A stretch of 64,000 bases of DNA from Planctomycetota bacterium. GTDB lineage: Bacteria; Planctomycetota; UBA8108; JACQVS01. The position numbers and the translations under genes were made by a program. The stretch's first letter is position 1. Each line of letters starts with the position of its first letter. Shown one piece after another: positions 45,540 through 63,900 of this stretch. The stretch covers positions 17,002 to 81,001 of the forward strand of contig JANQLS010000148.1 in assembly GCA_028280485.1 (NCBI GenBank). Direction: 5' to 3'. A model generated the notes under the pieces. That model made no database searches and had not been told where the DNA came from. It saw only the letters and a list, made by a program, of their open reading frames with translations.

Positions 45540-45559
45540 GCATAGACTTCTATCGGAGC

Positions 45560-46834: not shown

Positions 46835-46851
46835 AATCTTAAATTCCGAAT

Positions 46852-46927: not shown

Positions 46928-48225
46928 AATTCGATCCCCAATCCTTTAAACGCCTCCAATAACAACAGCTTTGCTCCCATCGCTTGCTTAGAAAGTTTTC
47001 CCTTCAAAGCATTTTTCTCATCGGGATCGACGTTCATATCAAAGAACTTGCCGCTTTTATAAAACTTGAAGCGCTGAGTACGAACCCAACTTTTATTTTT
47101 ATGTTCAGCGTAAGCAAATCGCTTGGGCCCGGGAACTCCTTTTAACAATCTTGAAGCGAAGCTCACCCCGTCGATCTTTCCCATCCCTTGAGGATCTGCA
47201 CCAGCTAAGACACAGAAGGTCGAGTAAAGATCACTGACATCCACGAGATCTTCCACCACCTGCTTGGGCTTAATTTTCGCCGGCCAACTCACGAGCCAAG
47301 GAACTCGAGTTCCCCCATCGGTAAGCTTACCCTTGCCTCCCGGGATCTTCTTATCCCCTTTCATCGAGAAGACGGGGTCACGAATATACTTCCCATTTTT
47401 CGCCCGAATGATGGATCGCTGGGCCGTGCCGTTATCACCAACGAAGAGGACGAGGGTATTGTCTCGCAGTCCCGATTCTTTCAACGCCTTCTGTAATTTC
47501 CCCACCATGCGATCCATGTCGTGAGCCATCTCTTTGTAGTTGAGATAGCGATCCAAACCGGGAGGATACTCAACCGGTTTTTTAAGGTCATCCGTGACGT
47601 CGTGACAGAGCGCCATCGAATAAAAGGCAAAGAAAGGTTTTTTACGATCCGCCTTCATGAAATCGATGAGGAAATCGGTATAGACATCGGGTCCGTAAGC
47701 CTTCTCTAAGCCTTTTCGAATTTTCCCGTTTTGCCAAATTAAGGGATTGTGAAACCGAGGACCTTCGTGCCATCCAAAAAGACAAGATTCATCAAATCCC
47801 AATCGGTGGGGATGCTTGGGATCTTCTTTTAATAAAGTAAGTTGCCACTTCCCCGCCACCGCCGTTCGGTAACCCGCTTTCTTTAATTGCTGAGCGATCG
47901 TTCGTGACTCTTCCTTTTTGGGATAACTCCCCCACTTAGCTTTTTCCATTCGAAACGGATACCGCCCGCTCAAGATCGAAACTCGTGTCGGATGACAAAC
48001 GGCCATACTGTATCCATGGTTGAAACGAATTCCGCTTTCCGCCAGAGCATCGAGCTGGGGTGTGGGGTAAGAAGTTCCTCCGTAGCACCCTAAGACTTCT
48101 TGGCCAACATCATCGGCAAGAATCAAAAGGATATTGGGACGCGGGGCTTCACTTTTGGGCTCTAAACTTAAAACAGCGTGTTCGACAACAAGGAAACTTA
48201 GGATGATGAACAATAAGTTTTTCAT
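46924..48225 (-). CDS. Formylglycine-dependent sulfatase (secreted)
   Basis: 433 aa; signal peptide; ILADDVGQEVLGCYG; CHPTRVSILSGRYP; GKWQL. Confidence 0.9.
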   Translation of the reverse strand: MKNLLFIILSFLVVEHAVLSLEPKSEAPRPNILLILADDVGQEVLGCYGGTSYPTPQLDALAESGIRFNHGYSMAVCHPTRVSILSGRYPFRMEKAKWGSYPKKEESRTIAQQLKKAGYRTAVAGKWQLTLLKEDPKHPHRLGFDESCLFGWHEGPRFHNPLIWQNGKIRKGLEKAYGPDVYTDFLIDFMKADRKKPFFAFYSMALCHDVTDDLKKPVEYPPGLDRYLNYKEMAHDMDRMVGKLQKALKESGLRDNTLVLFVGDNGTAQRSIIRAKNGKYIRDPVFSMKGDKKIPGGKGKLTDGGTRVPWLVSWPAKIKPKQVVEDLVDVSDLYSTFCVLAGADPQGMGKIDGVSFASRLLKGVPGPKRFAYAEHKNKSWVRTQRFKFYKSGKFFDMNVDPDEKNALKGKLSKQAMGAKLLLLEAFKGLGIEL

Positions 48226-48336
48226 AATTCTTCTGAATCAATTCGTAGCCAAATTCGCCAGAATTTGGGGATTGAGAAACCATAAAGCGTATCGCTACCA
48301 AAGACTGGCGTCTTTGGCTACAGGTCATCGGCGATC

Positions 48337-49710
48337 TTATTTCGACTTCGACCTCAAAATATATTTAAAGTCGATGGCGTGCTTTTCAAAATCCGGAGGC
48401 AACTTGGGATGACCCGCGATGAGGGGAGGAGTGAATTTCGAGTTAAAAAGAAAGACTCCAATTTTGCTCGCCTTCACATCATTGTCGTGAGTGGCGATAT
48501 GACAACCCCACGTCCCATCGAATCGAACAGGAGTGAGAGCTTCATCGTAAGAAGGTTTCGTCCACCAATGCCCGCCGACAAAGACTAAAGTGGCGACCTG
48601 TACCTCTCGAGGGCGAGCATGAAGAACCATCCCTTCGATCTTGCCTTTTTTCCCATACTTAGGGTACTGAGTAATCTTCAATCTTGTTTTACCCGCGCCC
48701 TGAATTAATTTCTTGGCTTGGTAATAATTCTTATCGAGCCCCTTATAACTCAGCGGAAAGAAATTTGCCTTCAGAACGCCCTTCTCGTTCCAAAGTCCCC
48801 AGTGAGCTCCCTGCTCTCCTTCTTTGGATTTAGCCTTCCAGGCTTCATCGTAAGAAGTAAACCAAAAGCTAGGCACTTCATTGGCATAAGCCCAATTTTG
48901 AAATTCTTTAAAGAAGGTTTTAACGTTTTTCAAACTCGGAATGGATTCATCGTGTTTTTCTCCACCGCTCGGCCATCCCGTTTCAGAAATCCAAACGGGC
49001 TTACCGTGAGCGATGGCTTTGACTCGCTGGTGTCGATAATGGAATCGTGAAATGGAATGTTCAATGGGCACTCCTTCCCAATAGGGGTAGGAATTGTAGA
49101 GAACGATATCGCACTCATTCACGATCAGGGGGTTTTTGATCAAAGAGAGGTAAATATCGGCTGTCGTCACCGGAACATTTGGCAAGGCTTGCTTCACCCG
49201 TTTGATGTAAACTCGATGCTCGACGGGAGTCACATCTTCACGGTATAAAACTTCACTACCGACGATCGCTAAATCGACAAGCCCCTTCTTGCCCAATTGA
49301 ATTAAGGCTTGAATCTCAGCCTCATTCGAAGCTCGGTTTTCTCCGATCCAAGCCCCGGCGGCGAGTTTGAGTTTATACTTCTTCGCCAACATCCCCATCT
49401 TTTGCATCCCACCGCTCACGCTGAAAACTCGAACCCATCGCGTGTAAGGAGCGATCATTTTCAGGCGAGCCTCTACCTGCTCGTCAGAGATTTTATCTCC
49501 CGGTTTTTGACCGGGACCGATTGGACTAAAGTTGAGTCCTAGAAGTTTCCCATCGTTTTTCCTGAAATCCACCTTCAATGGGGTTTCTTTTCCTTCCAAT
49601 GGTAGGAAGGTCAAAACAGAACAAGTGAGAATAAGAAAGGTCAATAATCGCATTAGATTTCGATTTAGAATTGAAAATTTAGTAAAACCAAATTCTACTA
49701 TTGAGCTCAA
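48337..49710 (-). CDS. Glycoside hydrolase family 17-like (beta-1,3-glucanase-type) protein with C-terminal extension
   Basis: 457 aa; signal peptide; LLGLNFSPIG...; catalytic-nucleophile block VWISETGWPSGG typical of GH17 (xTETGWPS). Confidence 0.65.
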   Translation of the reverse strand: MSSIVEFGFTKFSILNRNLMRLLTFLILTCSVLTFLPLEGKETPLKVDFRKNDGKLLGLNFSPIGPGQKPGDKISDEQVEARLKMIAPYTRWVRVFSVSGGMQKMGMLAKKYKLKLAAGAWIGENRASNEAEIQALIQLGKKGLVDLAIVGSEVLYREDVTPVEHRVYIKRVKQALPNVPVTTADIYLSLIKNPLIVNECDIVLYNSYPYWEGVPIEHSISRFHYRHQRVKAIAHGKPVWISETGWPSGGEKHDESIPSLKNVKTFFKEFQNWAYANEVPSFWFTSYDEAWKAKSKEGEQGAHWGLWNEKGVLKANFFPLSYKGLDKNYYQAKKLIQGAGKTRLKITQYPKYGKKGKIEGMVLHARPREVQVATLVFVGGHWWTKPSYDEALTPVRFDGTWGCHIATHDNDVKASKIGVFLFNSKFTPPLIAGHPKLPPDFEKHAIDFKYILRSKSK

Positions 49711-49754
49711 ATCAACAAATAGCTGATTCCCTAAAAAATAAGTGATTTATCGAA

Positions 49755-50498
49755 ATGAGTTCCCTCATCACTCAGGACCACCGCGAACAATTCAAAGAAG
49801 AAGGCTACTTCATCCTCGAAAATGCGATCCCCGATAAACATATGAGCATTCTTGATAATGCCTGCGATCACTTAATAAAAATCATCGACGATGAATTCGA
49901 TGCCCAGGGCATCACCCGTAATCATATCACCCACAAGGGAGTTCGCTACCATATCGCCAAGCGTTACGAGGAGTATCCCCCTCTCAAAGAATACATCTTT
50001 AGTGACTTGATGGAAGAGGTGTGCAAATCAACGATCGGGGAAACGGCATACCTATTTTATGATCAGTATGTTGTTAAATGCGCAGAGAAAGGAATTTCAT
50101 TCTCTTGGCACCAAGATTCGGGCTACTTAGGATTTCCCCACGTCCCTTACGTTACGACTTGGGCTTGTGTCGATGATATGAGCCTTGAAAATGGTACCGC
50201 CTTCGTGATGCCCTTCTCCACGATCGGCATTAAAAGTTTAGTCGAGCATATCCTCGACCCCACCACCGGAGACAAAGTCGGCTATTTTGGAAAAGAAGAA
50301 GGCGTTCCTGTCATTGCGAAGGCGGGAAGCTTAGCCGTCTTCAGCTCATTGAGCTTCCACCGAAGCGGCGCCAATACTACGAATAAAATGCGTCGCGCCT
50401 ACGTCACCCAGTACGCTCCAGCCGTCATCTGCCGCCCCGGAGAAACAGAGCCGATGCACTTAGCCGTTCCTTTTTTAAAGGATGGCCAAAAGGTATAA
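49755..50498 (+). CDS. Phytanoyl-CoA dioxygenase (PhyH) family Fe(II)/2-oxoglutarate oxygenase
   Basis: 247 aa; WHQDSGY...(HxD)...[19 protein letters not shown]. Confidence 0.7.
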
Positions 50499-50657
50499 CA
50501 CTTGAATCCGAAGCCGGTCTTTGATTTTGATCTTCCTTGAGTGCTAAAATTTACAGTTCAAATTCTCTCTTAACCTGATGGAGCAAAAGGCTCCAGCCTT
50601 TTGGCCATTGCGCTTTATAGTTCTCTTTCCCAAATTCTGGTGAATTTGGCTACAAAA

Positions 50658-51812
50658 ATGCAAAACTCAAAACTCCTTTGCTTAAACATTCTTTGGGCCA
50701 TCCTTGGAATCATCATCTCCTGCTCACCCGCACTCAGCCTCGAACGCGTCACCTCAAAAGTCGTTGGCAAGCTCAAAGATGGTCGCCCCATCCATGAATA
50801 CACGCTGAAGAACAAGAACGACTTAGAAGCGAGAGTCCTCACCTACGGTGCGACTCTTACTCGTGTTCGTATGCCCGACAAAAATGGCAAGATCGATGAC
50901 ATCGCTCTCTACCTCGACACGGCCGAAGAATACGTGAAAGGGCATCCCTTATTCGGTTCAGTTGTGGGGAGATACGCTAATCGTATTTCAAATGCCAGAT
51001 TCAAAATCGACGGCAAGGTATATGAAATTGAAAAGAATGCCGGTAAGAATCATATCCACGGAGGGCGCGATGGGTTTCAGAAAAGATTGTGGACGGGAAA
51101 AGGGACATCGATTAAGGGCTCGGCCTCAGTCAGTTTAAAATTGACAAGCCCCGATGGGGATGCGGGTTATCCGGGTGAATTGAAGGTCGAAGTGATCTAT
51201 ACTCTCAATGACGATAACGAACTCAAGATGAGATATAAAGCGACTACGACGAAGGCGACTCATCTCAATCTTACCAATCATGCGTACTGGAATTTAGGGG
51301 GCGCTGGATCGGGGGATGTCTTGGGGCATATCCTCAATTTTCCTGCAAGCAAGGTCTTGGAGGCCGACCAACATCGTTATCCAACAGGAAAGATCCTAAA
51401 GGTTGATGGTACTCCCCTCGATTTTCGAAAAGCTCACAGCATTGGAAGTCGAATCAAAGAAGCAAAAGGGGAAAACTACGATGATTGTTATGTGGTCGAC
51501 AGAAGAGCAATAAAGAGTAGATTACAGTTTATTGCCACTGTCTATCACCGAAAAAGCGGTAGGTGGATGGATGTATTGACGACTCAACCCGGATTCCAAC
51601 TCTACACAGCAAAAGGCTTGAGCTCCCGCTGGAAAACCAAAGACCGAACCTACGGTCCCTATCACGGTTTTTGCTTAGAAACCCAAAACTTCCCTGACGC
51701 CCCGAATCATGCAAACTTTCCTTCATCTCTTTTACGACCCGGTGAAGTTTACGATCACGAAACCATCCATCGATTTAAGATTAATAAAAAAACGGGTTCC
51801 GCTCGAAGTTAA
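50658..51812 (+). CDS. galM: Aldose 1-epimerase (galactose mutarotase), secreted
   Basis: GATLTRVRMPDKNGKIDDIALYLD...GSVVGRYANRISNARFKIDGKVYEIEKNAGKNHIHGG...HGFCLETQNFPDAPN. The start is placed at Met 50658 (signal peptide) because the upstream ATG at 50601 overlaps a family-C repeat. Confidence 0.85.
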   Translation: MQNSKLLCLNILWAILGIIISCSPALSLERVTSKVVGKLKDGRPIHEYTLKNKNDLEARVLTYGATLTRVRMPDKNGKIDDIALYLDTAEEYVKGHPLFGSVVGRYANRISNARFKIDGKVYEIEKNAGKNHIHGGRDGFQKRLWTGKGTSIKGSASVSLKLTSPDGDAGYPGELKVEVIYTLNDDNELKMRYKATTTKATHLNLTNHAYWNLGGAGSGDVLGHILNFPASKVLEADQHRYPTGKILKVDGTPLDFRKAHSIGSRIKEAKGENYDDCYVVDRRAIKSRLQFIATVYHRKSGRWMDVLTTQPGFQLYTAKGLSSRWKTKDRTYGPYHGFCLETQNFPDAPNHANFPSSLLRPGEVYDHETIHRFKINKKTGSARS

Positions 51813-51848
51813 TTCCCACCCCGAGGGGCTGTGAATTTTTAACCGAAA

Positions 51849-52007
51849 ACCGAAGGAATTTCTTGTATCCCTCGCTAAAGCTTCGGGCTTGAGGGGCACG
51901 AATCGTTTTCAGTGTTTAATTTGTAATAAGGGATTTCACTTATTCCATCTATAAATTAGTATTGAAATCACCAACCTCCCAAGCCCGAAGCTTTAGCGAG
52001 GGATAAT
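51849..52007. mobile_element. MITE-like element, family D: inverted CCCTCGCTAAAGCTTCGGGCTTG arms around an AT-rich core
   Basis: tccctcgctaaagcttcgggcttgagg ... cctcccaagcccgaagctttagcgagggata; related copies at 786-938, 43925-43950 and 53509-53571. Confidence 0.55.
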
Positions 52008-52070
52008 GAAGTCCCAACCGTCTTGAAAATCGATTAGCCCCTAAAAATTCACCGCCTCCGAGAAAAAAAA

Positions 52071-53465
52071 ATGAAATTGAATCCTTACTCCCTCATTCTT
52101 CTTTTAAGCTTCGCCTCTCTTCAAACATTCGTAGCATCCAATACTGCGAATTCAGACGAACGCCCCCCCAACTTCGTCATCATCTTTTTAGATGACTCCG
52201 GTTGGGGAGACTTCCATCCCTTCGGAAATCCCAAATACAAAACACCTCATGTTCAACGTTTGGCTAAAGAGGGAACGCAGTTTAATAACTTCTACGTCCC
52301 ACAAGCCGTTTGTTCGGCTTCGAGAGCTGCCCTCCTTACGGGTTGTTATCCGGGTCGTACAAAAGTCTTTGGCGCTCACCCCCCGAAAGCAAAAGGCTTA
52401 GATCCAAAATTCGCCACACTAGCTGAAGTCTTGAAGAAAAAAGGTTACGCGACCTGCTTCACGGGGAAATGGCACGTTGGAGATCAAGAAGCGACTCGCC
52501 CTCAAGCCCGCGGATTCGACGAATCGAGTGGCTTGATGTATTCCAACGACATGTGGGAGTTCCATCCCGAAAATCCCAAGTACTGGGGAAAGTTCCCCCT
52601 GAAATACTGGAAGAACGGAAAAGTCACGATCGAGCGAGTTACAAAAAAGCATCAACCTTATCTCACCACTTGGTCGACGGAACATGCGGTCGATTTCATT
52701 AAGCGGAAAAAAGACCAACCCTTTTTCGTTTACGTCCCTCACTCGATGCCCCACGTCCCTCTATTCGTAAGTGAAAAATTTGCGGGTAAATCAGGGCAGG
52801 GACTCTACGGCGATGTGATGATGGAAATCGACTGGTCGGTCGGTGAAATCATGAAAGCCTTAGAAAAGAACGGCGTCGAAAAAAACACTCTCGTCGCCTT
52901 TACTTCCGACAATGGCCCCTGGATCTCTTACGGCAACCACGCTGGCACAACCCCCTTCCGAGAAGCCAAAGGTACGAGCTTTGACGGTGGAATTCGAAGT
53001 GCTTGCATCATCAAATTGCCCGGAAAAATTCCTGCGGGTCACATCTCGACTCGAGCTTTCTCTTCTATCGATTTCCTTCCCACCTTTAGCTCGTTAGCGC
53101 AGGCACAACTTCCGTCTAATCCTGTGGACGGAAAAGATGTATGGTCGATCATCACCGGGCAGAAAAATGCCAAAAATCCACACTCCTACTACCCCTTTAG
53201 CAATGGAAGGAGATTCGAAGGCATCATCAGTGGAGATGGAATTTGGAAACTCCACATCCCCCATCGCTACCGCACGTTGGTCCAACCCGCCCACGATGGT
53301 CAAGCCGGAAAGTACAAGTCGATGAACGTTGAGCTTTCACTCTTTAAGCTCGATGAAGATCCACTTGAAAGTGAAAATGTCCTAAAAAAACACCCCGAGC
53401 AAGCCGAAAAAATGCTGCAAATGGCAGAGAAGCATAAAAAGACGTTTTACCCCAAGCAGAAGTAA
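52071..53465 (+). CDS. Formylglycine-dependent sulfatase (secreted) with CSASR variant motif
   Basis: 464 aa; IIFLDDSGWGDFHPFG; CSASRAALLTGCYP; GKWHVG; TSDNGP. Confidence 0.9.
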   Translation: MKLNPYSLILLLSFASLQTFVASNTANSDERPPNFVIIFLDDSGWGDFHPFGNPKYKTPHVQRLAKEGTQFNNFYVPQAVCSASRAALLTGCYPGRTKVFGAHPPKAKGLDPKFATLAEVLKKKGYATCFTGKWHVGDQEATRPQARGFDESSGLMYSNDMWEFHPENPKYWGKFPLKYWKNGKVTIERVTKKHQPYLTTWSTEHAVDFIKRKKDQPFFVYVPHSMPHVPLFVSEKFAGKSGQGLYGDVMMEIDWSVGEIMKALEKNGVEKNTLVAFTSDNGPWISYGNHAGTTPFREAKGTSFDGGIRSACIIKLPGKIPAGHISTRAFSSIDFLPTFSSLAQAQLPSNPVDGKDVWSIITGQKNAKNPHSYYPFSNGRRFEGIISGDGIWKLHIPHRYRTLVQPAHDGQAGKYKSMNVELSLFKLDEDPLESENVLKKHPEQAEKMLQMAEKHKKTFYPKQK

Positions 53466-53508
53466 TAGGGGTGAAATCATCACCCTTCCTGATTTTTGTA
53501 AAAACCGT

Positions 53509-53571
53509 TAACTAGCCCGAAGCGCTAGCGAGAGGTTCTTTCCCCTCGCTAGCGCTTCGGGCTAGTTAATA
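53509..53571. repeat. Family D palindrome: 28-bp-arm near-perfect hairpin
   Basis: TTAACTAGCCCGAAGCGCTAGCGAGAGG-ttctttc-CCCTCGCTAGCGCTTCGGGCTAGTTAA. Confidence 0.7.
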
Positions 53572-53869
53572 AGCAAATTTTATGAATAAAAAATTCATAT
53601 GAGAGATCTAATATGACGTGCTCAACCTCTTAATGTTTCGCCTTAAGAGGTACGAGGCCCCGTCGCTCACGCTCCGGGCTTATTAAGGGATTTTACAAAA
53701 AACTAGAACTCTTAGCCAACATCACCAACTGCACCATGGACATCCGCAGCCCAATTAGGGAAAATTAATGGTTACTGAATTAACGATCTGAGGTGAATTC
53801 TCATTCAATCCAAATGTTCCTCAGAATTCTAACGACCGGACACGCAAAAGATTCTGGAGTCGACTCAAT

Positions 53870-55177
53870 ATGAATCTATCAAATTCAATTCGATTGAAAT
53901 TACTTTCTCAAGCCTTTGTGATTGCGTTACTCATCTCCCCTACCGTCAGTGCCGACAATTGGCCTTCATGGCGAGGTCCCGATGGAACAGGTGTCGCTAA
54001 AGGTTCGGCTCCCACGGAGTGGAGCGAAACTAAAAACGTGCTTTGGAAAGTCGATCTTCCTGGGCCCGCAGGCGCAACTCCCTGCGTATGGGGAGATCAA
54101 ATCTTTTTGACCAGCGCGAAAGGGAAAGACTTAGTTCTCATCGCTATTAGCAAGTCCGGTGAAAAGCAGTGGGAGAAATTGGTCGCGACGGGTGATAAAC
54201 CCGTTCGTAGAGATGAAGGAAACATGGCCTCCCCTTCTCCAGTTACCGACGGCAAGCACGTTTGGACCTTCATGGCCAACGGTATCTTGGTTTGTTACAC
54301 CGTCAAAGGTGAAGAAGTGTGGCGAATGGATGTGCCTAAAAAATACGGCAAGTTCGAAATTCAATTTGGCCTCTCGAGTACTCCCGTCCTTCATGGCAAC
54401 AATCTTTACCTTCAACTCATCCACGGCAAATGGAGTCCTTCACCCAGTAAAGGAATCGTTGTTGCCCTGAACAAAGCGAATGGTAAAGAAGTTTGGAAGC
54501 ATGCCCGTGACACCGATGCCACGGAAGAATGTAAACACTCCTACGCTTCTCCTATCCTCTACAAAGATGGTAAACAAGAATACCTGGTAACTCACGGTGC
54601 TGATTACGCCATCGGTCACAGCTTAAAAGATGGTAAAGAGCTTTGGAGATTAGGCGGATTGAACCCCCGCGGAAAGGGTATTCGTTATCACAATACTCTC
54701 CGCTTCGTCGCTTCCCCCGCCATGGGCGATGGCATCATCGTCGTTCCTACTGCCAAGCGTTCAAAAGTAGTCGCGATCAAAGGGACAAGCAAGGGCGATA
54801 TCACTAACACTGCAAATGTTCTTTGGATGCACCCTCGCCTCACTCCCGATGTTCCCACCCCCTTGGTCCACAATGGAATTGTTTATCTCTGTTCCGAGGG
54901 TGGCATGCTCTCAGCTGTCGATGCCAAAAGCGGCGAACTTTACTACACCAAAAAAAGAACGACGAGTGATCGCCACCGCGCCTCCCCCGTATTAGCCGGT
55001 GATAAGCTGTACCTCACGGCTCGAAACGGAACGGTCAGTGTTTGCCAAACAGGAAAAGAATTTAAGATTCTCTCCCAAAACACCTTCGGTGAAACGATGT
55101 CCGCTTCACCCGTCGTCGTCGACGGTGTCATCTACCTAAGAACCTGGGATCGCCTCTGGGCGGTAGGTTCAAAGTAG
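53870..55177 (+). CDS. Secreted PQQ-like beta-propeller repeat protein
   Basis: 435 aa; signal peptide; NWPSWRGPDGTG...WKVDLPGPAGATP; paralog of 7714..8982 and 45560..46834. The stop TAG (55175-55177) sits inside an AAGTAGTCCGCTCAC repeat terminus. Confidence 0.75.
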   Translation: MNLSNSIRLKLLSQAFVIALLISPTVSADNWPSWRGPDGTGVAKGSAPTEWSETKNVLWKVDLPGPAGATPCVWGDQIFLTSAKGKDLVLIAISKSGEKQWEKLVATGDKPVRRDEGNMASPSPVTDGKHVWTFMANGILVCYTVKGEEVWRMDVPKKYGKFEIQFGLSSTPVLHGNNLYLQLIHGKWSPSPSKGIVVALNKANGKEVWKHARDTDATEECKHSYASPILYKDGKQEYLVTHGADYAIGHSLKDGKELWRLGGLNPRGKGIRYHNTLRFVASPAMGDGIIVVPTAKRSKVVAIKGTSKGDITNTANVLWMHPRLTPDVPTPLVHNGIVYLCSEGGMLSAVDAKSGELYYTKKRTTSDRHRASPVLAGDKLYLTARNGTVSVCQTGKEFKILSQNTFGETMSASPVVVDGVIYLRTWDRLWAVGSK

Positions 55178-55233
55178 TCCGCTCACTCCGTGAGCGGGTA
55201 TCAGCATTCCAATTAAATTTAAACATTCATAAA

Positions 55234-55268
55234 GCCCAGGGAAACGAAACGTTCCCCTGGGCTTTTTT
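55234..55268 (+). terminator. Rho-independent terminator
   Basis: GCCCAGGGAAACG-aaa-CGTTCCCCTGGGC followed by TTTTTT: about 12 bp of stem with one mismatch. Confidence 0.75.
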
Positions 55269-55643
55269 AGTAGTAGGCTCGCTCCGCGAGTCGTATGAAA
55301 CGAAATAACGAGTCAGTATCGATTCCACCTGAAGAACATTAAGGCGAAACTCGAAGGAGATATCGCCCCTCTTTCTTGAATTCTTAGTAACGCCCTTACA
55401 GGGCTTGCTTCTTAAGATGAATTAGCCCAGGGCGCCGCTTCGCTCTGCCCTGGGCTATGAAGTTACGGGCTTTCAGCCCTTGGTGAATTAAAATACGCCA
55501 CATCCGATTGGTAATAAAACAATGTTGCTATTCCTGAGCGTTAGCTGATAAAGACTTGGCCAACATCGTTCGCATTTTGTTTAATCTTGATGATTCATTT
55601 CTATCAACTCGTTTCATACGACTCGCGGAGCGAGCCTACTACT
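55269..55643. mobile_element. MITE-like element E (375 bp): 34-bp terminal inverted repeats enclosing a family-B repeat unit
   Basis: Left AGTAGTAGGCTCGCTCCGCGAGTCGTATGAAACG (55269-55302) and right CGTTTCATACGACTCGCGGAGCGAGCCTACTACT (55610-55643) are exact reverse complements. The interior carries cgcccttacagggct...cccagggcgccgcttcgctctgccctgggctat, also seen at 37843-37937. Confidence 0.65.
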
Positions 55644-55848
55644 ATTACGTTCATTTTCAATTCAACTGTTTTAAAACAACGCTCTGTCTAATTTTTGTAT
55701 TCCCACTTGATGCTCACCTTTTAAGTAGCTAAAAAACCTTCACTTAAACTCAATTTAAACAAATATCTTCAATGTGGCCCCATCCTTGCTTTTCAGTGAT
55801 TCGATTCGTGAATCTCGTTCCATTTCAAATTCAAACTGGAGGCCGCCT

Positions 55849-56244
55849 ATGTATAAGTTTTACCGCCCTGGGGCAAGTTGTGGGTTTACGCTTTTGGAGA
55901 TGATCGCAGTGATTACGCTCATCGGAATCTTAGCGACGCTTGTTGTAATCAATCTCGATTCCCATATGAACACTGCTTGTAATATGAAAACGCAATCCGA
56001 TTTAAAAACTATAAAAAGAAGTGTGGATGTTTTCAAAATCACAAAGGGTCGCTATCCGGTAGATTTAGAGGAGCTCATCCACACTCCGGAATCGGGATTA
56101 GAAGAATTGCCCTTAGATTATTGGGAGAGACCTTATATATACGAACTCATCGATGGTAGGCCCGTGATCAGCTGCTTCGGTGAAGATGGAGTGGAAGGCG
56201 GCGAAGGCATGAATCAAGACTATCACGAACCTAAGCAGAAGTAA
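55849..56244 (+). CDS. GspG-like pseudopilin (prepilin-type N-terminal cleavage/methylation domain)
   Basis: ASCGFTLLEMIAVITLIGILA prepilin motif; C-terminal DYWERPYIY...FGEDGVEGGEG like GspG; GGAGG RBS 8 nt upstream of the ATG at 55849. Confidence 0.75.
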   Translation: MYKFYRPGASCGFTLLEMIAVITLIGILATLVVINLDSHMNTACNMKTQSDLKTIKRSVDVFKITKGRYPVDLEELIHTPESGLEELPLDYWERPYIYELIDGRPVISCFGEDGVEGGEGMNQDYHEPKQK

Positions 56245-56447
56245 GATTGTAACTTTCCGTGTAGCCGAAGACGCCAGCCGTAGCCGAACTCGTAAGAGTT
56301 TGGATCTTTAAGGCGTAATTCGCCAAAAGACTGGCGTCTTTTGCTACACGTCTTTGGCGACATTAAAGGTGTCTATCCATTCAGCCGACAGGTATTATAG
56401 GAAACTCTAAATGAACACTCTCCTGCTGGATCCTGTAAACACCTTTC

Positions 56448-57257
56448 ATGCTACCCGAACAACCTTGCCGCCCCCTACTTGCGATCAACTACTCTCCCCA
56501 GGCACTTTCGCTTCTCAACGAAGGGCTGATAAATTTTGATTTATTCAAATTGCCCGATTGGCCTGATTTGGTCAATGAAATCCAATCAAGTTTTGAGGGA
56601 GAGGTTTACGTTCACTTTGATTTTCACCTCGGAGCGCAGGGTTTTGAGAAATCGAAAATTACTGAAGCAAAAAAGCTCTTAGGAATAGGCAAGACCACTC
56701 ACATCAACACTCACTTTGCGCCTTCCAATCCGGAAGAAAGCTTGAACCAAGTGAGCGATGAAATCGAAGAACTTCTCAGCCATTTCGATCGGGATCAAAT
56801 CTTAATCGAAAACGTCCCGTGGATAAATGTTCCCGATTACCCCATCGATCCCCTGGCCTCCAAACCTCAAGCCATCGCCCGAGTCGTTCGAGAGACAGGT
56901 TGCGGATTCCTCATGGATCTCGCCCACGCTAAAATCACATGTCTTGAAGAAAACCTTCAAATCGAACCCTACTTAAGTGCGCTTCCAACCGAACACCTGC
57001 AAGAACTCCATGTCACGGGAGTCAATAGGGATTCAAACGGTAACTTAAGAGACTCGATGCCTATCACCCCTGAAGATTGGGAAACCGTGGAATGGAGCCT
57101 CGACCGGATCGCAAGTGGAGAATGGCGCTGCCCCCGTATCATCACTTTAGAATACGGAGGCATCGGCCCCAAGTTCGAATGGCGAAGTGACCCCGATGTC
57201 ATCGCCCAACAACTACCTCAATTAGAACGCTTACTCCTTGAACGGGGTCTTCGATGA
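56448..57257 (+). CDS. DUF692/UPF0276-family TIM-barrel protein (MbnB/TglH/HvfB-like), first gene of a glycan-type operon
   Basis: 269 aa; blocks LLAINYS...INFDLFKL, VYVHFDFHLG, ILIENVPW, GCGFLMDLAHAKI, ELHVTGV, RIITLEYGG align with MbnB blocks IGFNF...IDYCEI, FHVMF, YLENYP, LFDASNA, HFHVAGY, TITYERDAN (recalled from memory). The stop overlaps the next start (ATGA). Confidence 0.55.
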   Translation: MLPEQPCRPLLAINYSPQALSLLNEGLINFDLFKLPDWPDLVNEIQSSFEGEVYVHFDFHLGAQGFEKSKITEAKKLLGIGKTTHINTHFAPSNPEESLNQVSDEIEELLSHFDRDQILIENVPWINVPDYPIDPLASKPQAIARVVRETGCGFLMDLAHAKITCLEENLQIEPYLSALPTEHLQELHVTGVNRDSNGNLRDSMPITPEDWETVEWSLDRIASGEWRCPRIITLEYGGIGPKFEWRSDPDVIAQQLPQLERLLLERGLR

Positions 57258-58399
57258 GTCGCAAACGCTTAATCGTCGTTGGCGGGCCGGATGTCGATGC
57301 CCGAATTCCTCTTCTAAAGAAGTTGTCGGATTCTTACGAACCTATCGCCTTTGGTACGGATAAAACGCTAAAAGACACCTTCGACTCTCACGAAATTGAA
57401 TTCCATCACTACCCGCTCACCAGAGGCTTCCTGAGCTTGAAAGATCTTTCGGCTCAACGTATCTGTAAAGATAAGTTCACTGCTCTCAAACCGGATATCG
57501 TTCACACCTTCGATACCAAACCATCCGTCTTCGCTCGTTTAGCGGCGGATCAAGCCCAAGTGCCCACCATCATCGGAACCTTACCTGGCTTAGGAATTTT
57601 GTGGTCTGGGAATCAGTTTTCACTTAGGTGGCGACGCTCATTCTATTCCGGCCTCCACACGAAAGCCTGTAAGGTCTCAAGTTGTACTGTCTTTCAGAAC
57701 CAGGACGATATCGATCTGATGGTGCGTGAAAGGGTTGTTGAAGAATCCAAGGCTCGACTGATTCGAGGCTCGGGGATCGAAGCAGAATCTTACAACCTTC
57801 GATGGAACGAAGAAGAAAAGAGTGCCCTCAGAGAAGAGTTAGGTTTGAGTGAAAACGATTTTGTCATTACCAACTTAGGTCGGTGGACTCGTTCCAAAGG
57901 TATTCTTCAACTCATCGAAGCTCTCCCCTACCTTTCAAAAACGATTCCTCAGGCAAAACTCCTTTTAATCGGAAAAGAAGATACTAATGGTTTAGATCGA
58001 TTGACTCCGAAAGAAGTTCAAAAGATAAAAGCCCATGCGCTATGCCCGGGATACGTTTCGGATCCGAAAAAGCTATTGGCCCTGAGCGATGTTTTCGTGT
58101 TCCCTTCAACTTATAGGGAAGGTCTACCGCGAGTGTTAATGGAAGCTGCACTTCTAAAAATTCCTATCGTGGCCGCGGATAATGTTGGTACTCGAGAAAT
58201 CGTTCAGCAGGAGACGACTGGCTTGCTTCTCCCGCCCAACAATCCGCAAGCGCTTGCCGTGGGCATCATCCATATCTTTCAAAATGAAAAATTAAGCCGT
58301 AAGCTCACCACAAATGCCCACAATTTAGTTCTCAAAGAATTCACATTAGATAAAATTCAAATGGAGCACCGTCGCCTCTACGATGAATTTACCGCTTAA
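57254..58399 (+). CDS. Glycosyltransferase family 4 (GT-B, group 1)
   Basis: 381 aa; C-terminal EGLPRVLMEAALLKIPIVAADNVGTREIV...GLL nucleotide-sugar-binding motif. Confidence 0.85.
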   Translation: MSRKRLIVVGGPDVDARIPLLKKLSDSYEPIAFGTDKTLKDTFDSHEIEFHHYPLTRGFLSLKDLSAQRICKDKFTALKPDIVHTFDTKPSVFARLAADQAQVPTIIGTLPGLGILWSGNQFSLRWRRSFYSGLHTKACKVSSCTVFQNQDDIDLMVRERVVEESKARLIRGSGIEAESYNLRWNEEEKSALREELGLSENDFVITNLGRWTRSKGILQLIEALPYLSKTIPQAKLLLIGKEDTNGLDRLTPKEVQKIKAHALCPGYVSDPKKLLALSDVFVFPSTYREGLPRVLMEAALLKIPIVAADNVGTREIVQQETTGLLLPPNNPQALAVGIIHIFQNEKLSRKLTTNAHNLVLKEFTLDKIQMEHRRLYDEFTA

Positions 58400-58412
58400 T
58401 TTTTGAACTTGA

Positions 58413-59177
58413 GTGACTTTCGCTTTGAACGACCCGGATCTCTCTTCAGCCCATTCCTACCAAGACGAGCGCCAGCGCATCCTCGAAGCTTATAGAAAGC
58501 GTCAAGAGGTTCGTCCCCTGGAGTTTTCTGATCAAGGATATGAAAATCTGTCGCATCGCCTTCGCGTTGAAGAACGCTATCATGAAACTTATAAGATCAT
58601 CAAAGATCAATTCAACCCGTCCATCGCCGACTTAAAAATACTCGACTTCGGCTGTGGCGATGGTAACTTCCTGAAGAAGACATTAGATTGGGGAGCACAG
58701 GCGGAAAACCTTACAGGAATTGAGCTGAGAGAAAATGTTTTACGGGAGGCACGAAAAAAGCTTCCCCATTCCCATTGGATTCAGGCCTGTGGATCAGAAC
58801 TTCCATTGAGCGATCAAGGTATCGATATCGTCGTAGCGAACACGGTTTTCAGCTCAATTCTTTTAACTGATCTTCAAAAAGCGATCAGCGTAGAATTAGA
58901 ACGGGTTCTGAAACCCGAGGGCCTTATCATCATCTATGACTTCCACCGAAAGAATCCTCATAACATAGATGTTCAAGCGATGCCCTTAGAAAAATTCAAA
59001 CCCTTGTTTGGAGGATTTGATTTAGTTTATTCTAAGAGCATCACGTTTCGGCCCGATTGGGCGAGAAAGTTTCCTTCGATTTTTTTGAAAGCAATCTTTC
59101 CATTGCTTTCAGCCTTTCCGAGCTTTAAAACTCACCATCTCTCCGTCTTTAAGAAGAAATCCCCCAACTCAGACTAA
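58413..59177 (+). CDS. Class I SAM-dependent methyltransferase (GTG start)
   Basis: 254 aa; ILDFGCGDGNFLKK motif I; DIVVANTVF. Confidence 0.75.
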   Translation: MTFALNDPDLSSAHSYQDERQRILEAYRKRQEVRPLEFSDQGYENLSHRLRVEERYHETYKIIKDQFNPSIADLKILDFGCGDGNFLKKTLDWGAQAENLTGIELRENVLREARKKLPHSHWIQACGSELPLSDQGIDIVVANTVFSSILLTDLQKAISVELERVLKPEGLIIIYDFHRKNPHNIDVQAMPLEKFKPLFGGFDLVYSKSITFRPDWARKFPSIFLKAIFPLLSAFPSFKTHHLSVFKKKSPNSD

Positions 59178-59184
59178 ACTCTCT

Positions 59185-60390
59185 GTGAACTCAAAAAAGA
59201 TTCCCCTCGCCCGACCTTGGGTCGGAACTGAAGAACTGAAAAATCTCGAACGTGTTTTAAATCGGGGCTGGCTGACTACGGGTCCAGAGGTGAAACAATT
59301 CGAAGAAGAGTTTCGATCGCGGATCAAGGCTCAACACGCCATCGCGGTTAGCTCAGGAACTCAAGCCTTAGAACTGGCCTTGGCTTCATTAGATTTGAGG
59401 CCAGGCGAGAAAGTGATCACTCCATCTTATACTTTTGCCGCTGCACCGGAAGTCATCCTGCGTTTAGGAGCTCAAGTCGTCTTAGTCGATGCTGATGAAA
59501 GAGACCTCAATATTTCGATTGAAAAAACAAGGGAAATTCTTGAGAGAGAATCGGGAACTGTTCGTGCGATCCTCCCCGTACATTTAGCTGGACACCCTGT
59601 CGATATTCAGGGCTTAGATTCTTTGGCTGAAGAGTTCGGCCTAAAAATCATCGAAGACGCAGCTCACGCGTATCCGACTCAAGTGGGCCCCAATTGGATT
59701 GGTGGTCAACAAAACCGCCCCCATCTACACACAACCTGCTTTAGCTTCTATGCCAATAAAACTCTAACTACCGGGGAAGGCGGTATGATCACTACAGAAG
59801 ACGAGGAATTAGCTCAACGCTTAAGAAAACTGACTCTTCACGGTATGGAGAAAAACACATGGAAACGAGTTCAATCCAAGAACCAACCCTCATGGGAATA
59901 CGAGATTAACGAGCGGGGCTTTAAAGCAAATATGAGTGACCTCGCGGCCGCGGTGGGTTTAGCTCAACTTGAAAAAGCTCACCGAGCTCGGGAGCTACGA
60001 ACGGAGAGAGCAAAGCAGTATCTGTCTTTATTGAGCCATCGAAAGGATTTGATTCTGCCCCCCGATGTTGAGGGTTCCTCTTGGCATCTTTTTATCATTC
60101 GCCTCAAAAGAGAAGCATTTCCAAATTTAATGGAAAAGCGTAATCAAGTCATGACCGACTTGAGTGAAGCCGGCATCGAAACGAGTCTTCACTACCGCCC
60201 TATTCATATGCACACTTATTACAAAGATCTTTTAAAGCATCAGGATGGGGATTTCCCTGTTTGCTTTGAGGGGTATCAGGGTGCAATCACGTTACCGCTT
60301 TTTGCTCAGATGACGGAGGAGGAAGTGGAGCGGGTTGTGGAGGAGTTGGGGAAGACTTTAGCGGACTACCTACCGCCCCATCAGCGCTAA
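59185..60390 (+). CDS. DegT/DnrJ/EryC1/StrS-family PLP-dependent sugar aminotransferase (GTG start)
   Basis: 401 aa; ...AVSSGTQALELAL..., DAAHA, FSFYANKTLTTGEGGMI (PLP lysine). Confidence 0.9.
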   Translation: MNSKKIPLARPWVGTEELKNLERVLNRGWLTTGPEVKQFEEEFRSRIKAQHAIAVSSGTQALELALASLDLRPGEKVITPSYTFAAAPEVILRLGAQVVLVDADERDLNISIEKTREILERESGTVRAILPVHLAGHPVDIQGLDSLAEEFGLKIIEDAAHAYPTQVGPNWIGGQQNRPHLHTTCFSFYANKTLTTGEGGMITTEDEELAQRLRKLTLHGMEKNTWKRVQSKNQPSWEYEINERGFKANMSDLAAAVGLAQLEKAHRARELRTERAKQYLSLLSHRKDLILPPDVEGSSWHLFIIRLKREAFPNLMEKRNQVMTDLSEAGIETSLHYRPIHMHTYYKDLLKHQDGDFPVCFEGYQGAITLPLFAQMTEEEVERVVEELGKTLADYLPPHQR

Positions 60391-61752
60391 ACGAATTCGC
60401 TTCAAATTTGTAGCATGACTGGCATCATCCGGTTCCGCTTGAGCGAGGCGAGATAAAAAATAGATATGCATAGGGAAGAGCTCTGGAGCGCGGGTGTTTT
60501 GAACTAAAAGCCGTAGCGCCATCACCGATTTAGGATTTCGAGCTAACAACAATCGGGATAAAGTTTCTGATTCTTTCTTCTTACCCAGTCGGCCCGCTTC
60601 GATGAGCGCATCGTTAAGAGCAGGTTCTACGTCTTTCCAACGCGTCTTACCGATCTTCTTTAACCAAACGGGAAGGTTTTCTTGAGCTTCGGTGAATTCT
60701 CGCAATCGATCCTCCACTTTGTCTTGAACACTTTCCGTTTCATCTTCTGGAATCGCTTTCAACTCGGCGATGGCTTCCGCGAAAACACCGTGTCTTGCCC
60801 AAAATTCAGCGCGAATGAAATGAAGTTCCGTCGACGGCCATCGCCTTATACTGGTATTCAATTCTCTAAGCGCTCGATCCAATTCCCCTAATTGCTCCCA
60901 ATTTCGAGCTCTTTTAAGAAACAGTTCATAAGAGCGCCCCTGGGCCTGTAAGTGCAATGCTCGCGATGATTCTCCGAAGACCTTTCTTAAATACTCGAAT
61001 AACTTCATCGCATGAGCTGACATTCGGCTTCTCCGCAACTTAATCAACTGACGTGACGCTTGGAAGACGCAACGCCTTTCGAAGGGATTTTCTTCAAAGT
61101 AATCGAGAAGAAAGCTGAGGGAACTCTTCGGATTTCCGTGTTGACTATGAAGCAGCGCTAATTCAAAGCGGGCTTCTTGACGAGTAGTCGAATGATTTAA
61201 TGCTTCGGTTAAATGCTTGATAGCCGGCGAAACTTCTCCCGTCTTCGACAAAGCGATGCCTAAAGCGAGATGTCCACGATATTCCGGTTGAGCTTCTACC
61301 CATGCTTTTAGGGGAATGATCGCATCTTGATAACGATGCGATTTTAAATAAATAAAGCCGGCTGTTTCTTGCGCGGCCGGCCCCGGAAAATCTTTCAATA
61401 CAGATTCTACGATGGTCGCCGCCTCGGTGAGAATTTCTTGCAAGGCTAAAGTTCGAGCAAGGCGCAATCGACATTCCATCTTTTGGGTCGCCGTTAGATC
61501 TTTACTTTCACTCAATTGCCTGAGGACTTTTTCAGCCTCGGGATAATCCCCCAATTGATAGTGGCACTGCGCTTCGAGTTCTTTCAACTCAACGGAGGAG
61601 TTGGTCTTTGAAAGCTCCTGAATGTGACTTAAGGCTTTTTTGAATTCCCCTTTTTTGACATATTCACCGACAGATTTGATGGTCTCGGCCAGCGTGACCT
61701 GTGGGAGGAGAATAAGAAGGGTAAGTAACGAATAAAGGTAAGTACGGTTCAT
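60370..61752 (-). CDS. Secreted tetratricopeptide (TPR) repeat protein
   Basis: 460 aa; signal peptide; multiple TPR-like helical repeats; its 3' end overlaps the aminotransferase gene by 21 nt. Confidence 0.6.
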   Translation of the reverse strand: MNRTYLYSLLTLLILLPQVTLAETIKSVGEYVKKGEFKKALSHIQELSKTNSSVELKELEAQCHYQLGDYPEAEKVLRQLSESKDLTATQKMECRLRLARTLALQEILTEAATIVESVLKDFPGPAAQETAGFIYLKSHRYQDAIIPLKAWVEAQPEYRGHLALGIALSKTGEVSPAIKHLTEALNHSTTRQEARFELALLHSQHGNPKSSLSFLLDYFEENPFERRCVFQASRQLIKLRRSRMSAHAMKLFEYLRKVFGESSRALHLQAQGRSYELFLKRARNWEQLGELDRALRELNTSIRRWPSTELHFIRAEFWARHGVFAEAIAELKAIPEDETESVQDKVEDRLREFTEAQENLPVWLKKIGKTRWKDVEPALNDALIEAGRLGKKKESETLSRLLLARNPKSVMALRLLVQNTRAPELFPMHIYFLSRLAQAEPDDASHATNLKRIRLALMGR

Positions 61753-62205
61753 TACGGGTAACTCAAATGTAAATAATTATCGTTCAAATAGTCTTTTTAT
61801 CCTAACGCGAGAATTTGGTGTACACAAATGTTCTTGAAGAACGTCATTATCCTGTAGCGCCTGGGCCCGGCATCGGCTTCCGCCAAAGTAGGGCCAGGCC
61901 TTCACCTTAAAGCCAGATTCGATTTTTAAAATTCACTAGACCACTTAAGAATAGTCACCCACAAGGGGTGGCGCTACAGGGTCAATTCCGATTTGAGGTT
62001 AGCGTATCAGCGGTGGCGCTACAGGATTGATCTCATTTCAAAAATAAATATCGTTGCCCCTTATTCAATGGGAGTTGTATCTAAAACGAATACATCCGAA
62101 TTAGCTTAGCGATACCTCATAGCAAATTTTTACTAATTCGGCTACATCTCCCCGAATTTGGCTACAATAATCATTTAAATTTAACAATCGAAAGCACTTC
62201 CTTAA

Positions 62206-63900
62206 ATGCTCAACCTCCTCTCCATCCTCTTACTCACCATCATTCAAGCGAAGCCGGAACCAAAGCCTTTATTCCATAAGGCAAAACTCCCTTCCCCCAT
62301 CGCCTTCAATCACACTTGTGGATCGAAAGAAAAAGATTGGATCTATGAAGTCAATGGGAGTGGTATAGCCCTGTTGGATTACGATGGTGATGGGGATCTC
62401 GATATTTACTTTGTGAACGGTTCAAAGTTGGATCTCAAAGAGGATGACGAAAAACCCAAGAACGCCCTCTACCGAAATGATGGCAACTGGAAGTTCACCG
62501 ATATCACGACTCAAGCGGGCGTGGGTGATACGGGCTGGGGTTGCGGGGTAGCGATCGCCGATATTGAAAACGATGGAGATCTCGATATTTACGTCGCCAA
62601 CTTAGGGGCGAATGTTCTTTATCTCAATCAGGGGGATGGAACTTTTAAAAAAGCAGAAAACTCGGGTACAGAATCCCTATCGAATAGCTCTTCAGCGAGT
62701 TTCGGAGATTTTAACCGCGACGGCTTCGTCGATCTCTATGTCGCTAATTACGTCCCCTTCAAACTAGATCCAGAAAAATCGAGATTGAGCGGGAAGTGCG
62801 AGTACAAAGGTCGAAAGATCTTTTGCGGCCCGGGAGGCTACCCCGGACAAGCCGATCAACTTTTCCTCAATCGGGGTGAAGGAAAATTCGAAGACGTCAG
62901 TAAAGCCTGGCGCATCCAATCTTCAAAACCTTCCTTTGGCTTGGGAGTCTTAGTCGTCGACATTCAGGACGACGGCTTCCCAGATATCCTTGTTGCGAAT
63001 GACACGAATCCCAACTTTTGTTTTCTCAATCAATCCGGAAAGAGCTTCACCGAAGCCGCGCAATTTTTAGGCATCGCCTACAACGACTACGGAGTCCCTC
63101 AGGCCGGAATGGGATTAGCTTCGGGAGACTTTAGAGGTCTCGGACTCGAAGATCTGTTCGTGACAAATTTCGAAGACGACACCAACACTCTTTACCTTAA
63201 AAATCCCAATGCTCCTTTTTATACTGAAGGCACTCATATCGCCGGCTTGGGAGGAGCCAGTTACCCGTACATGGGCTGGGGAACCTTTGGATTCGATGCC
63301 GATGGAGACGCCGATCTCGATCTTTTTGTCGCCAACGGTCATATCGCCCCCCAGGTGAAGGGCCTCCGCAACAGCCCGGGCTACGAGCAAAAGAATCAAC
63401 TTTTCTTAAATGACGGCAAAGGCAAGTTCCGAGAATATTCGCCAAAAGCGGACTCAGCGGACGGTTTATCCATAAAAAAATCTTCTCGAGGCGCAGCCTT
63501 TGGAGATTTGGATGGCGACGGAGATCCCGACATTGTCGTCAGCAATATCGACAGCGCTCCTACCCTCTTAAACAACCGTTCATCGGGTCGTAAATGGATT
63601 TCTGTTGAGCTTGAAGGGGAAAGAAGTAATAAGTTCGGAATCGGTGCCAAAGTGAGTCTCATCGAAGCTACCGGGCAACAACTGAGAACGATTCAAAGTG
63701 GTAGAAGCTACGCATCCCAAGGCGAGCTCTACGCCCGATTTTCGCGTCGAAATCCAGCAACTGTCGCTCAACTCGTCGTCGCCTGGCCATCGGGCCTGAA
63801 AGAGGCCTTCGAAGTGAAAAAACAGGAAAAATCTCCCCATATCAGACTTTCTTTGAAGGAAGGCACGGGTAAACCGGTGTCGCAAGTTCGAAAGAATTAA
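62206..63900 (+). CDS. CRTAC1-family protein: FG-GAP/VCBS repeats + ASPIC/UnbV C-terminal domain
   Basis: 564 aa; six DxDGDGDxDIxVxN-type repeats (DYDGDGDLDIYFVNG, DIENDGDLDIYVANLG, DLDGDGDPDIVVSNID ...). Confidence 0.75.
   Translation: MLNLLSILLLTIIQAKPEPKPLFHKAKLPSPIAFNHTCGSKEKDWIYEVNGSGIALLDYDGDGDLDIYFVNGSKLDLKEDDEKPKNALYRNDGNWKFTDITTQAGVGDTGWGCGVAIADIENDGDLDIYVANLGANVLYLNQGDGTFKKAENSGTESLSNSSSASFGDFNRDGFVDLYVANYVPFKLDPEKSRLSGKCEYKGRKIFCGPGGYPGQADQLFLNRGEGKFEDVSKAWRIQSSKPSFGLGVLVVDIQDDGFPDILVANDTNPNFCFLNQSGKSFTEAAQFLGIAYNDYGVPQAGMGLASGDFRGLGLEDLFVTNFEDDTNTLYLKNPNAPFYTEGTHIAGLGGASYPYMGWGTFGFDADGDADLDLFVANGHIAPQVKGLRNSPGYEQKNQLFLNDGKGKFREYSPKADSADGLSIKKSSRGAAFGDLDGDGDPDIVVSNIDSAPTLLNNRSSGRKWISVELEGERSNKFGIGAKVSLIEATGQQLRTIQSGRSYASQGELYARFSRRNPATVAQLVVAWPSGLKEAFEVKKQEKSPHIRLSLKEGTGKPVSQVRKN

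Follow-up and report, generated by a model that had tools for sequence, protein, structure and literature searches.

Two surveys of the oxidative enzymes that depend on multinuclear non-heme iron (MNIOs; DUF692 family, with MbnB, TglH, and HvfB as known members) each covered approximately 13,500–14,000 proteins of Pfam family PF05114 and sought precursors and partners beside the family members (PMC12257519, PMC12452194). Both note that numerous small clusters have gene neighbourhoods which are varied and unexplained (PMC12452194, PMC12257519). Here, we describe a four-gene operon which starts with a divergent DUF692-like gene (positions 56448–60390) and which is located on a 64,000 nt stretch of DNA from a Planctomycetota bacterium (GenBank assembly GCA_028280485.1, contig JANQLS010000148.1, positions 17,002 to 81,001). 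This complete stretch is referred to as the window, and all coordinates are those of the window.

In MbnB, Fe1 is coordinated by H54, H90, and E133, Fe2 by E133, D163, H192, and E239, and Fe3 by N166, D208, and H210 (PMC9060507). MNIOs which do not need a partner protein are known, namely DybH, MovX, and ChrH; these adjoin a precursor peptide gene, and MovX carries an extra domain of the winged helix-turn-helix type (PMC13056109).

The first three genes of the operon, coding for the DUF692-like protein, a family 4 glycosyltransferase (GT4), and a methyltransferase, are its conserved core. Our preferred, though tentative, reading is that they form an uncharacterised module, the TIM-barrel enzyme of which has a substrate other than a peptide, in all probability a sugar or an acceptor that carries one. 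A literature search retrieved no account of a non-peptide MNIO, of this branch of the family, or of an MNIO-GT4-methyltransferase module.

Results and Discussion

Organization of the operon

All four open reading frames (ORFs) delineated in the first-pass annotation, with their overlap and their gaps, could be read in the sequence. They are encoded on the forward strand. The first gene of the unit (56448..57257) codes for a 269 aa protein, a predicted divergent DUF692/MNIO-like TIM-barrel metalloenzyme as judged from PF05114, an AlphaFold2 model, and a ligand alignment. Its stop codon overlaps the start codon of the second gene within an ATGA at 57254–57257. The second gene (57254..58399) codes for a PglA-like GT4 glycosyltransferase (PF00534; match to PglA structure 8dqd) and ends with TAA at 58397–58399. 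A gap of 13 nt separates it from the GTG at 58413, with which the gene for a class I S-adenosylmethionine-dependent methyltransferase (58413..59177; PF08241) may start; TTG at 58425 is an alternative start and is where the gene was called on L001, a Logan contig of identical sequence. After a further gap of 7 nt, the fourth gene starts with GTG at 59185. This gene (59185..60390; PF01041) codes for a pyridoxal phosphate-dependent sugar aminotransferase of the DegT/DnrJ/EryC1 family (ArnB/PseC-like). The GC content is even over the region (0.46–0.47).

The region 56448–60390 is one operon. The ArnB/PseC-like aminotransferase is an accessory fourth gene, an addition in the lineage of the window. 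The ORF coding for the 269 aa protein is real, as it has more than 250 homologues and a confidently predicted fold.

Placement of the 269 aa protein

PF05114 (MbnB_TglH_ChrH) is the sole Pfam family above threshold for the 269 aa protein (42.5 bits; cut-off 25). The match is partial, covering residues 96–221 and profile positions 110–232 of 263. Other members of the DUF692-like family score 30–58 bits against PF05114, and longer ones (P0086, P0045) have no additional Pfam domain and hence no domain fusion. The AP endonuclease/sugar isomerase family PF01261 (AP_endonuc_2) remains below its cut-off (23.8 vs. 31.1 bits). The NCBIfam equivalogs for MNIOs are missed by far (ApyH, 48.3 bits vs. a cut-off of 400; BufB, 41.5 vs. 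310; HvfB, 26.4 vs. 360; MbnB, 12.3 vs. 325).

When a profile of 44 homologues was compared with the PDB, significant matches were confined to the DUF692 structures 3bww (E 7.5e-9) and TglH (E 7.6e-6); MbnB (E 0.013) and endonuclease IV (EndoIV; 5zhz, E 0.15) came next. The AlphaFold2 model is a TIM barrel (pLDDT 94.5, pTM 0.92). A Foldseek search with this model has TglH at the top (E 8e-13, TM 0.72), then MbnB and 3bww, and after these MNIOs a putative sugar-phosphate isomerase, EndoIV, UVDE, and xylose isomerases. Structural scores closely behind those of the MNIOs were obtained for the isomerase Art22 (18.0), a D-tagatose-3-epimerase-like protein (17.9), IolI (17.7), mannonate dehydratase (17.6), IolE (17.0), and YcjR (16.8); the score of EndoIV is 15.9. 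Of the known proteins, the MNIOs are thus the closest relatives, though their structural lead is narrow, as the sugar isomerases score nearly as high.

The assignment to DUF692 made by the first-pass annotation thus holds in the sense that DUF692/MNIO is nearest by profile, by profile-to-PDB search, and by fold. Two outcomes had been named there as speaking against this assignment, a best match to sugar-phosphate isomerases and a lack of the metal ligands; neither was found, because the nearest match is DUF692 and the six core metal ligands are present (see below). The protein shares just 13–17% sequence identity with MNIOs, and it belongs to a separate branch at the edge of PF05114.

D-tagatose/D-psicose 3-epimerases have a single metal (bound by E, D, H, and E). 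The DUF692-like family differs from these and the other xylose-isomerase-like enzymes (IolI, IolE, YcjR, Art22) in that it additionally retains both second-site histidines (H56, H89); the window protein also scores below threshold for PF01261.

Metal ligands and other invariant residues

In a 44-sequence alignment of the family, H56, H89, E121, D157, H160, H188, and E235 are invariant. Except for H160, these align with the matching ligands of 3bww, TglH, and MbnB. Because all six Fe1/Fe2 ligands are invariant and aligned, the dinuclear core is predicted to be intact.

The third site deviates. Where 3bww, TglH, and Vibrio MbnB have Asn (N166 in MbnB), this family has an invariant His (H160). 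D202 is conserved to ca 90%. Residue 203 is His in most members and Ser in the window protein, while position 204, the equivalent of MbnB H210, is variable and is Met in the window protein. The Fe3 ligand set of MbnB is thus not matched by the family.

H160 generates a DxxH motif (D157/H160) as found in Mycobacterium tuberculosis EndoIV (LDTCH, 5zhz alignment), while MNIOs have DxxN. Of the nine tri-Zn ligand positions of EndoIV, eight correspond to conserved residues of the family, while the remaining one is displaced or missing; the three-site ligand pattern appears to be largely shared. This raises the alternative that the protein is not an oxidase but a hydrolytic tri-metal phosphoesterase resembling EndoIV, with a role in DNA repair or with a sugar linked by a phosphodiester or a pyrophosphate as its substrate. 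Such a role would agree with the shared superfamily fold, with EndoIV and UVDE being among the structural matches, and with the housekeeping gene contexts and the occurrence in anaerobes as well as aerobes (see below), which suit a repair enzyme or hydrolase. However, EndoIV is not matched significantly by sequence (E 0.15), the structural scores are lower than those to MNIOs, PF01261 stays under threshold, and the protein is strongly acidic (predicted pI 4.67). Translational coupling to a GT4 gene in all 11 sampled members of the subclade described below would be unexpected for a DNA-repair enzyme. We thus consider this alternative improbable.

Across phyla, at 35–54% sequence identity, 23 mostly polar residues are invariant (including N14, D31, K34, N87, N122, E186, Y236, and R246). 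Such an invariant set is more in keeping with a small polar substrate that stays the same than with peptides that co-evolve. N14, D31, K34, N87, N122, E186, Y236, G237, G238, G240, and R246 are invariant in the family and are not common to canonical MNIOs in the aligned regions. The family has motifs of its own (NYS, DxxK, and EYGGxG...R), by which, as by the altered third site, it differs from MNIOs.

The three-gene cassette in related genomes

A metagenome scan with the single protein resulted in 38 pattern matches but no relatives; a rescan with the subclade alignment was successful. The proteins from the window were compared by tblastn with 170-odd loci of the family. Each of the 11 distinct subclade members sampled (the window [=L001], L002, L024, L032, L066, L087, L088, L089, L090, L091, and L172 [=L173]) has a gene for a GT4 ortholog (35–50% sequence identity) immediately downstream of its DUF692-like gene; in five of these, the GT4 gene is interrupted by the contig end (L087, L089, L090, L091, and L172/L173). 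A methyltransferase ortholog (31–43% identity) follows the GT4 gene at each of the six loci for which the contig is long enough. L024 is from Acidobacteriota (Ca. Multivoradales) and L066 from Planctomycetia.

The DegT gene occurs at three of the cassette loci only (window, L002, L066). The conserved GT4/DegT link which the first-pass annotation suggested to look for in relatives therefore exists for GT4 and extends to the methyltransferase, while DegT is accessory; most of the family lacks a glycosyltransferase link (see below). When ORFs from 82 loci were clustered, GT4, methyltransferase, and DegT were the only recurrent neighbour families directly resembling genes of the window.

Overlaps of 4–8 nt between the DUF692-like gene and the GT4 gene recur (window, L002, L088, L173), and the flanking genes are completely different between the cassette loci (sigma-54 activator, extracytoplasmic function sigma/anti-sigma factors, AraC-TPR, PRAI, SnoaL). 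In a crude, midpoint-rooted neighbour-joining tree, the cassette-bearing sequences form basal groups, apart from a large stand-alone clade.

Proteins encoded by the downstream genes

The second protein is assigned to the GT4 class by PF00534 (112.5 bits) and, for the N-terminal domain, PF13477 (28.9 bits). Its best PDB match, which is full-length, is PglA (8dqd, E 3.7e-18), the Und-PP-bacillosamine GalNAc transferase. The nearest GT4 homologues from outside the cassette (36–41% identity) are encoded in Wzx/Wzy polysaccharide clusters.

The methyltransferase is a generic class I enzyme (PF08241, 58.7 bits) with weak best matches: 55.6 bits to the DVU_1556 family (cut-off 155) and, in the PDB, E 1.8e-7 to LahSB, a methyltransferase for peptides which are made by ribosomes and modified after translation (RiPPs). 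A PADLOC analysis showed nothing beyond a generic methyltransferase match, and a defence system was rejected.

The fourth protein belongs to the DegT family (PF01041, 356.7 bits) and has ArnB as its best PDB match (E 5.5e-68). It is below the cut-offs of the equivalogs PseC (330.5 vs. 423.5 bits) and ArnB (296.9 vs. 631 bits), so that its assignment is at the level of the family and not of a particular substrate.

The operon resembles the pgl module of Campylobacter and Neisseria in that PglA is the best solved relative of its GT4 and in the combination with a DegT-family aminotransferase (PglE or PglC in the pgl module). It differs by the absence of a dehydratase, an acetyltransferase, an initiating transferase, a flippase, and an oligosaccharyltransferase, and has a TIM-barrel metalloenzyme and a methyltransferase instead.

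Search for a partner protein or a precursor peptide

The first-pass annotation had noted that neither a partner nor a precursor is visible, and this was confirmed. None of the genes scanned in the window (44169–63900) has a match to a DUF2063-type partner, and no Pfam match to a partner of the DUF2063 or RiPP recognition element type was obtained for the genes listed or scanned at the related loci examined. The gap 56245–56447 does not contain a Cys-rich ORF. All ORFs of 18–110 aa within 3 kb of the cassette were compared all-against-all for eight loci, and no conserved small ORF was detected; every match between loci proved to be an alternate-frame shadow of the DUF692-like, GT4, methyltransferase, DegT, or PQQ_2 genes. 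In having no partner gene nearby, the family resembles DybH, MovX, and ChrH; it differs from these in that no precursor was found at the related loci.

These data bear on the possibility that the protein is a true MNIO which oxidises a peptide or protein encoded elsewhere, with GT4 and methyltransferase tailoring this substrate to a glycosylated and methylated RiPP or protein. PF05114 as the sole Pfam family, the six conserved Fe1/Fe2 ligands, the precedent of partner-less MNIOs, and the (weak) match of the methyltransferase to LahSB are all in its favour. It would have to accommodate, however, that no conserved small or Cys-rich ORF accompanies the cassette, and that more than 150 members are encoded alone, without any conserved neighbour. 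It would also have to accommodate that an invariant His takes the place of MbnB N166, a residue reported to be highly conserved, with the H210 equivalent being unconserved, and that all MNIO equivalogs remain far below their cut-offs. In addition, obligate O2 chemistry fits badly to the strict anaerobiosis of Anaerolineaceae, with which 10 of 80 loci are labelled. We thus consider a peptide-oxidising MNIO unlikely.

The wider family and its stand-alone majority

The family consists of proteins of ca 270 aa. A full hidden Markov model scan of 1.84 billion representatives yielded 289 clusters with a limit of E<=1e-30; with E<=1e-10, there were 802. Clusters were counted at 50% identity. Among 80 genome loci, most are from Chloroflexota/Anaerolineae (including the 10 labelled Anaerolineaceae); the rest belong to Trueperaceae or halophilic Bacillaceae or, in a few cases, to Planctomycetota. 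According to their isolate names, some of the metagenome-assembled genomes (MAGs) which carry the family seem to originate from anaerobic reactors. Anaerolineaceae are strictly anaerobic.

The window-type GT4 is absent at ca 155 other loci of the family. Recurrent neighbours of the stand-alone genes are His_Phos_1, 3-hydroxyacyl-CoA dehydrogenase (3HCDH), GNAT, TsaD, CNNM, and ABC genes and, in Bacillaceae, PanF, a mannitol operon, and a DNA topology modulation protein. They were rejected as functional partners, being attributable to lineage synteny without a common theme. Virgibacillus siamensis has two family paralogues on different contigs (L010, L061), one of which is located directly after the sodium/pantothenate symporter gene panF.

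At two loci from Chloroflexota, the family is independently linked to glycan genes. At L045 (9911–16903; =L100), which is from a MAG of Chloroflexota, there is an overlap between the DUF692-like gene and a radical SAM gene, and GT4 and GT2 genes come next. The opposite strand codes for a Wzx-like flippase and a DegT protein, and a GT10-like gene is found upstream. At L086, the DUF692-like gene overlaps a different GT4 gene. A general GT4 enrichment across the whole family was considered and rejected as unconvincing (see below).

The stand-alone distribution suggests a further alternative: the protein may exert the same stand-alone function as in Chloroflexota and Bacillaceae, so that the linkage to GT4 and methyltransferase would reflect shared regulation or inherited synteny within one clade rather than a shared pathway. 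The identity of the active-site residues between the stand-alone and the cassette clades and the lack of neighbour conservation at the ca 155 loci are as expected from this alternative. The grouping of the cassette-bearing sequences in the neighbour-joining tree would allow the link to have arisen in a single ancestral event or in a few. Yet the cassette has been retained at 35–45% protein sequence identity in distant lineages while all flanking genes are different, the short overlaps with the GT4 gene are recurrent, and L045 and L086 represent independent glycosyltransferase associations. Mere synteny is thus, in our view, not a probable explanation.

Proposed function of the module

Returning to the preferred reading, a non-peptide substrate of the TIM-barrel enzyme is suggested by four lines of evidence: the polar active-site residues which are invariant across phyla, the lack of a precursor at eight loci, the stand-alone distribution, and the glycan-type partners. 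As to chemistry, substrate class, and sequence of reactions, we infer the following. The TIM-barrel enzyme would have a two-metal centre (H56/H89/E121 and E121/D157/H188/E235) with a modified third site (H160/D202), and would oxidise or keto-isomerise a sugar. In the lineage of the window, the DegT protein may then aminate the resulting keto group. The GT4 would transfer or receive the sugar, and the methyltransferase would finally cap it.

O2-dependent oxidation on the one hand and a redox-neutral isomerisation or elimination on the other are considered about equally likely. Obligate O2 chemistry is open to doubt because the family is frequent in MAGs from Anaerolineaceae and because its third metal site resembles that of EndoIV. 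There is a real chance that the TIM-barrel enzyme is not an oxidase at all.

Several observations weigh against a sugar-directed module. The MNIOs characterised so far all have peptides or proteins as substrates (PMC12452194, PMC13056109), and DUF692 structures are the only significant matches of the family profile in the PDB. The ca 155 stand-alone loci adjoin unrelated housekeeping genes and share the same active-site residues, so that the enzyme can function without a GT4. In an internal near/far control, the enrichment of GT4 genes outside the subclade is only ca 2-fold. The fourth gene of the cassette varies (CN_hydrolase in L088; DJ-1/PfpI and a metallo-beta-lactamase-fold protein in L032). 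Finally, no complete glycan pathway can be written, because neither a dehydratase nor an initiating phosphoglycosyltransferase nor a flippase is encoded in the operon.

The first-pass annotation had proposed a glycan or glycoconjugate modification route using a DUF692-type oxidase. The conserved link to GT4 and methyltransferase agrees with this proposal, while the accessory nature of DegT and the mostly unlinked wider family do not. The more far-reaching claim would be that this is the first enzyme of MNIO lineage operating off ribosomal peptides, a stand-alone multinuclear-metal TIM barrel which makes or modifies a sugar, a glycolipid, or a small-molecule glycoside together with GT4 and methyltransferase. 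This is conceivable but doubtful.

Upstream region and remainder of the window

A gene coding for a PQQ_2 beta-propeller protein ends at 55177 and is followed by a hairpin with a T run (55231–55265). A perfect 36 nt inverted-repeat pair (55268–55303 and 55609–55644, 305 nt apart) is located between this terminator and a gene for a GspG-like pseudopilin (55774–56244; T2SSG, 40.3 bits; N_methyl, 22.2 bits; GspG TIGR01710, 70.3 bits, under the cut-off of 88.85). The repeat has no further copy in the window; it resembles a miniature inverted-repeat transposable element or the ends of an insertion sequence remnant. The pseudopilin gene described by the first-pass annotation is thus present, but its "repeat-rich spacer" consists of this single repeat pair plus several hairpins and is not a repeat array.

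Behind the pseudopilin gene, on the forward strand, CGCCAAAAGACTGGCG followed by TCTTTTGCTA forms a terminator-like hairpin (56321–56336; feature span 56321..56345), which is contained in a larger inverted repeat (56258–56277/56331–56350). Going by its sequence, this hairpin is likely the 5' boundary of the operon.

In L002, the closest relative, the DUF692-like gene is found within ca 120 nt of the PQQ_2 gene (4163–4280), without a pseudopilin gene in between. The flanks of L002 match those of the window (PQQ_2, 73% identity; TPR protein, 48%; in addition, an FG-GAP/ASPIC gene). The 1.27 kb stretch 55178–56447, missing from the syntenic L002, therefore represents either a lineage-specific insertion in the window or a deletion in L002. 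As the pseudopilin gene and the repeats are missing in L002 and are set off from the operon by the hairpin, they are outside the unit. The pseudopilin was also rejected as a substrate or partner: it is missing in L002 and all other cassette loci, and the terminator-like hairpin lies in between.

At the other end, a convergent TPR gene (60370–61752, reverse strand), which codes for a protein judged to be secreted from its signal-peptide-like N-terminus, shares 21 nt (60370–60390) with the 3' end of the DegT gene. The TPR gene of L002 is convergent, too; in L088, an unrelated TPR gene follows the cassette.

The regions 1–24218 and 44169–55177 carry polysaccharide-degradation genes typical for the PVC (Planctomycetota-Verrucomicrobiota-Chlamydiota) group, with at least five sulfatases and three PQQ_2 beta-propellers; PQQ_2 and sulfatase genes are adjacent at two sites (45560–48225 and 52071–55177). 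Planctomycete-specific domains encoded in the window are PSCyt1/2/3, PSD1-5, DUF1501, and DUF1552; by these and by the many sulfatases, the genome is judged to be of the PVC type. Further genes code for a protein with a 3-keto-disaccharide-hydrolase domain, a glucuronyl esterase/FGE-sulfatase fusion, an aldose epimerase, and a PhyH dioxygenase. A DNA photolyase gene (13471–14895) is found amid genes with planctomycete-specific domains and genes of sugar-acid metabolism. Two ORFs are very large (17718–22667 and 39505–43842, reverse strand), coding for 1649 aa and 1445 aa.

Conclusion

At present, genome mining handles MNIOs purely as RiPP enzymes, while the branch described here, with its ca 290 clusters, has neither a precursor nor a partner. 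The unit is experimentally tractable, as it consists of three or four small soluble proteins. If our interpretation is correct, the DUF692 superfamily would gain a new substrate class, and a previously unrecognised three-gene module would be common to Planctomycetota-type and Acidobacteriota genomes. The branch would either extend MNIO chemistry to non-peptide substrates or mark the transition of the family to EndoIV-like or isomerase-like enzymes, and either outcome would correct the annotation "DUF692 family multinuclear iron-containing protein".

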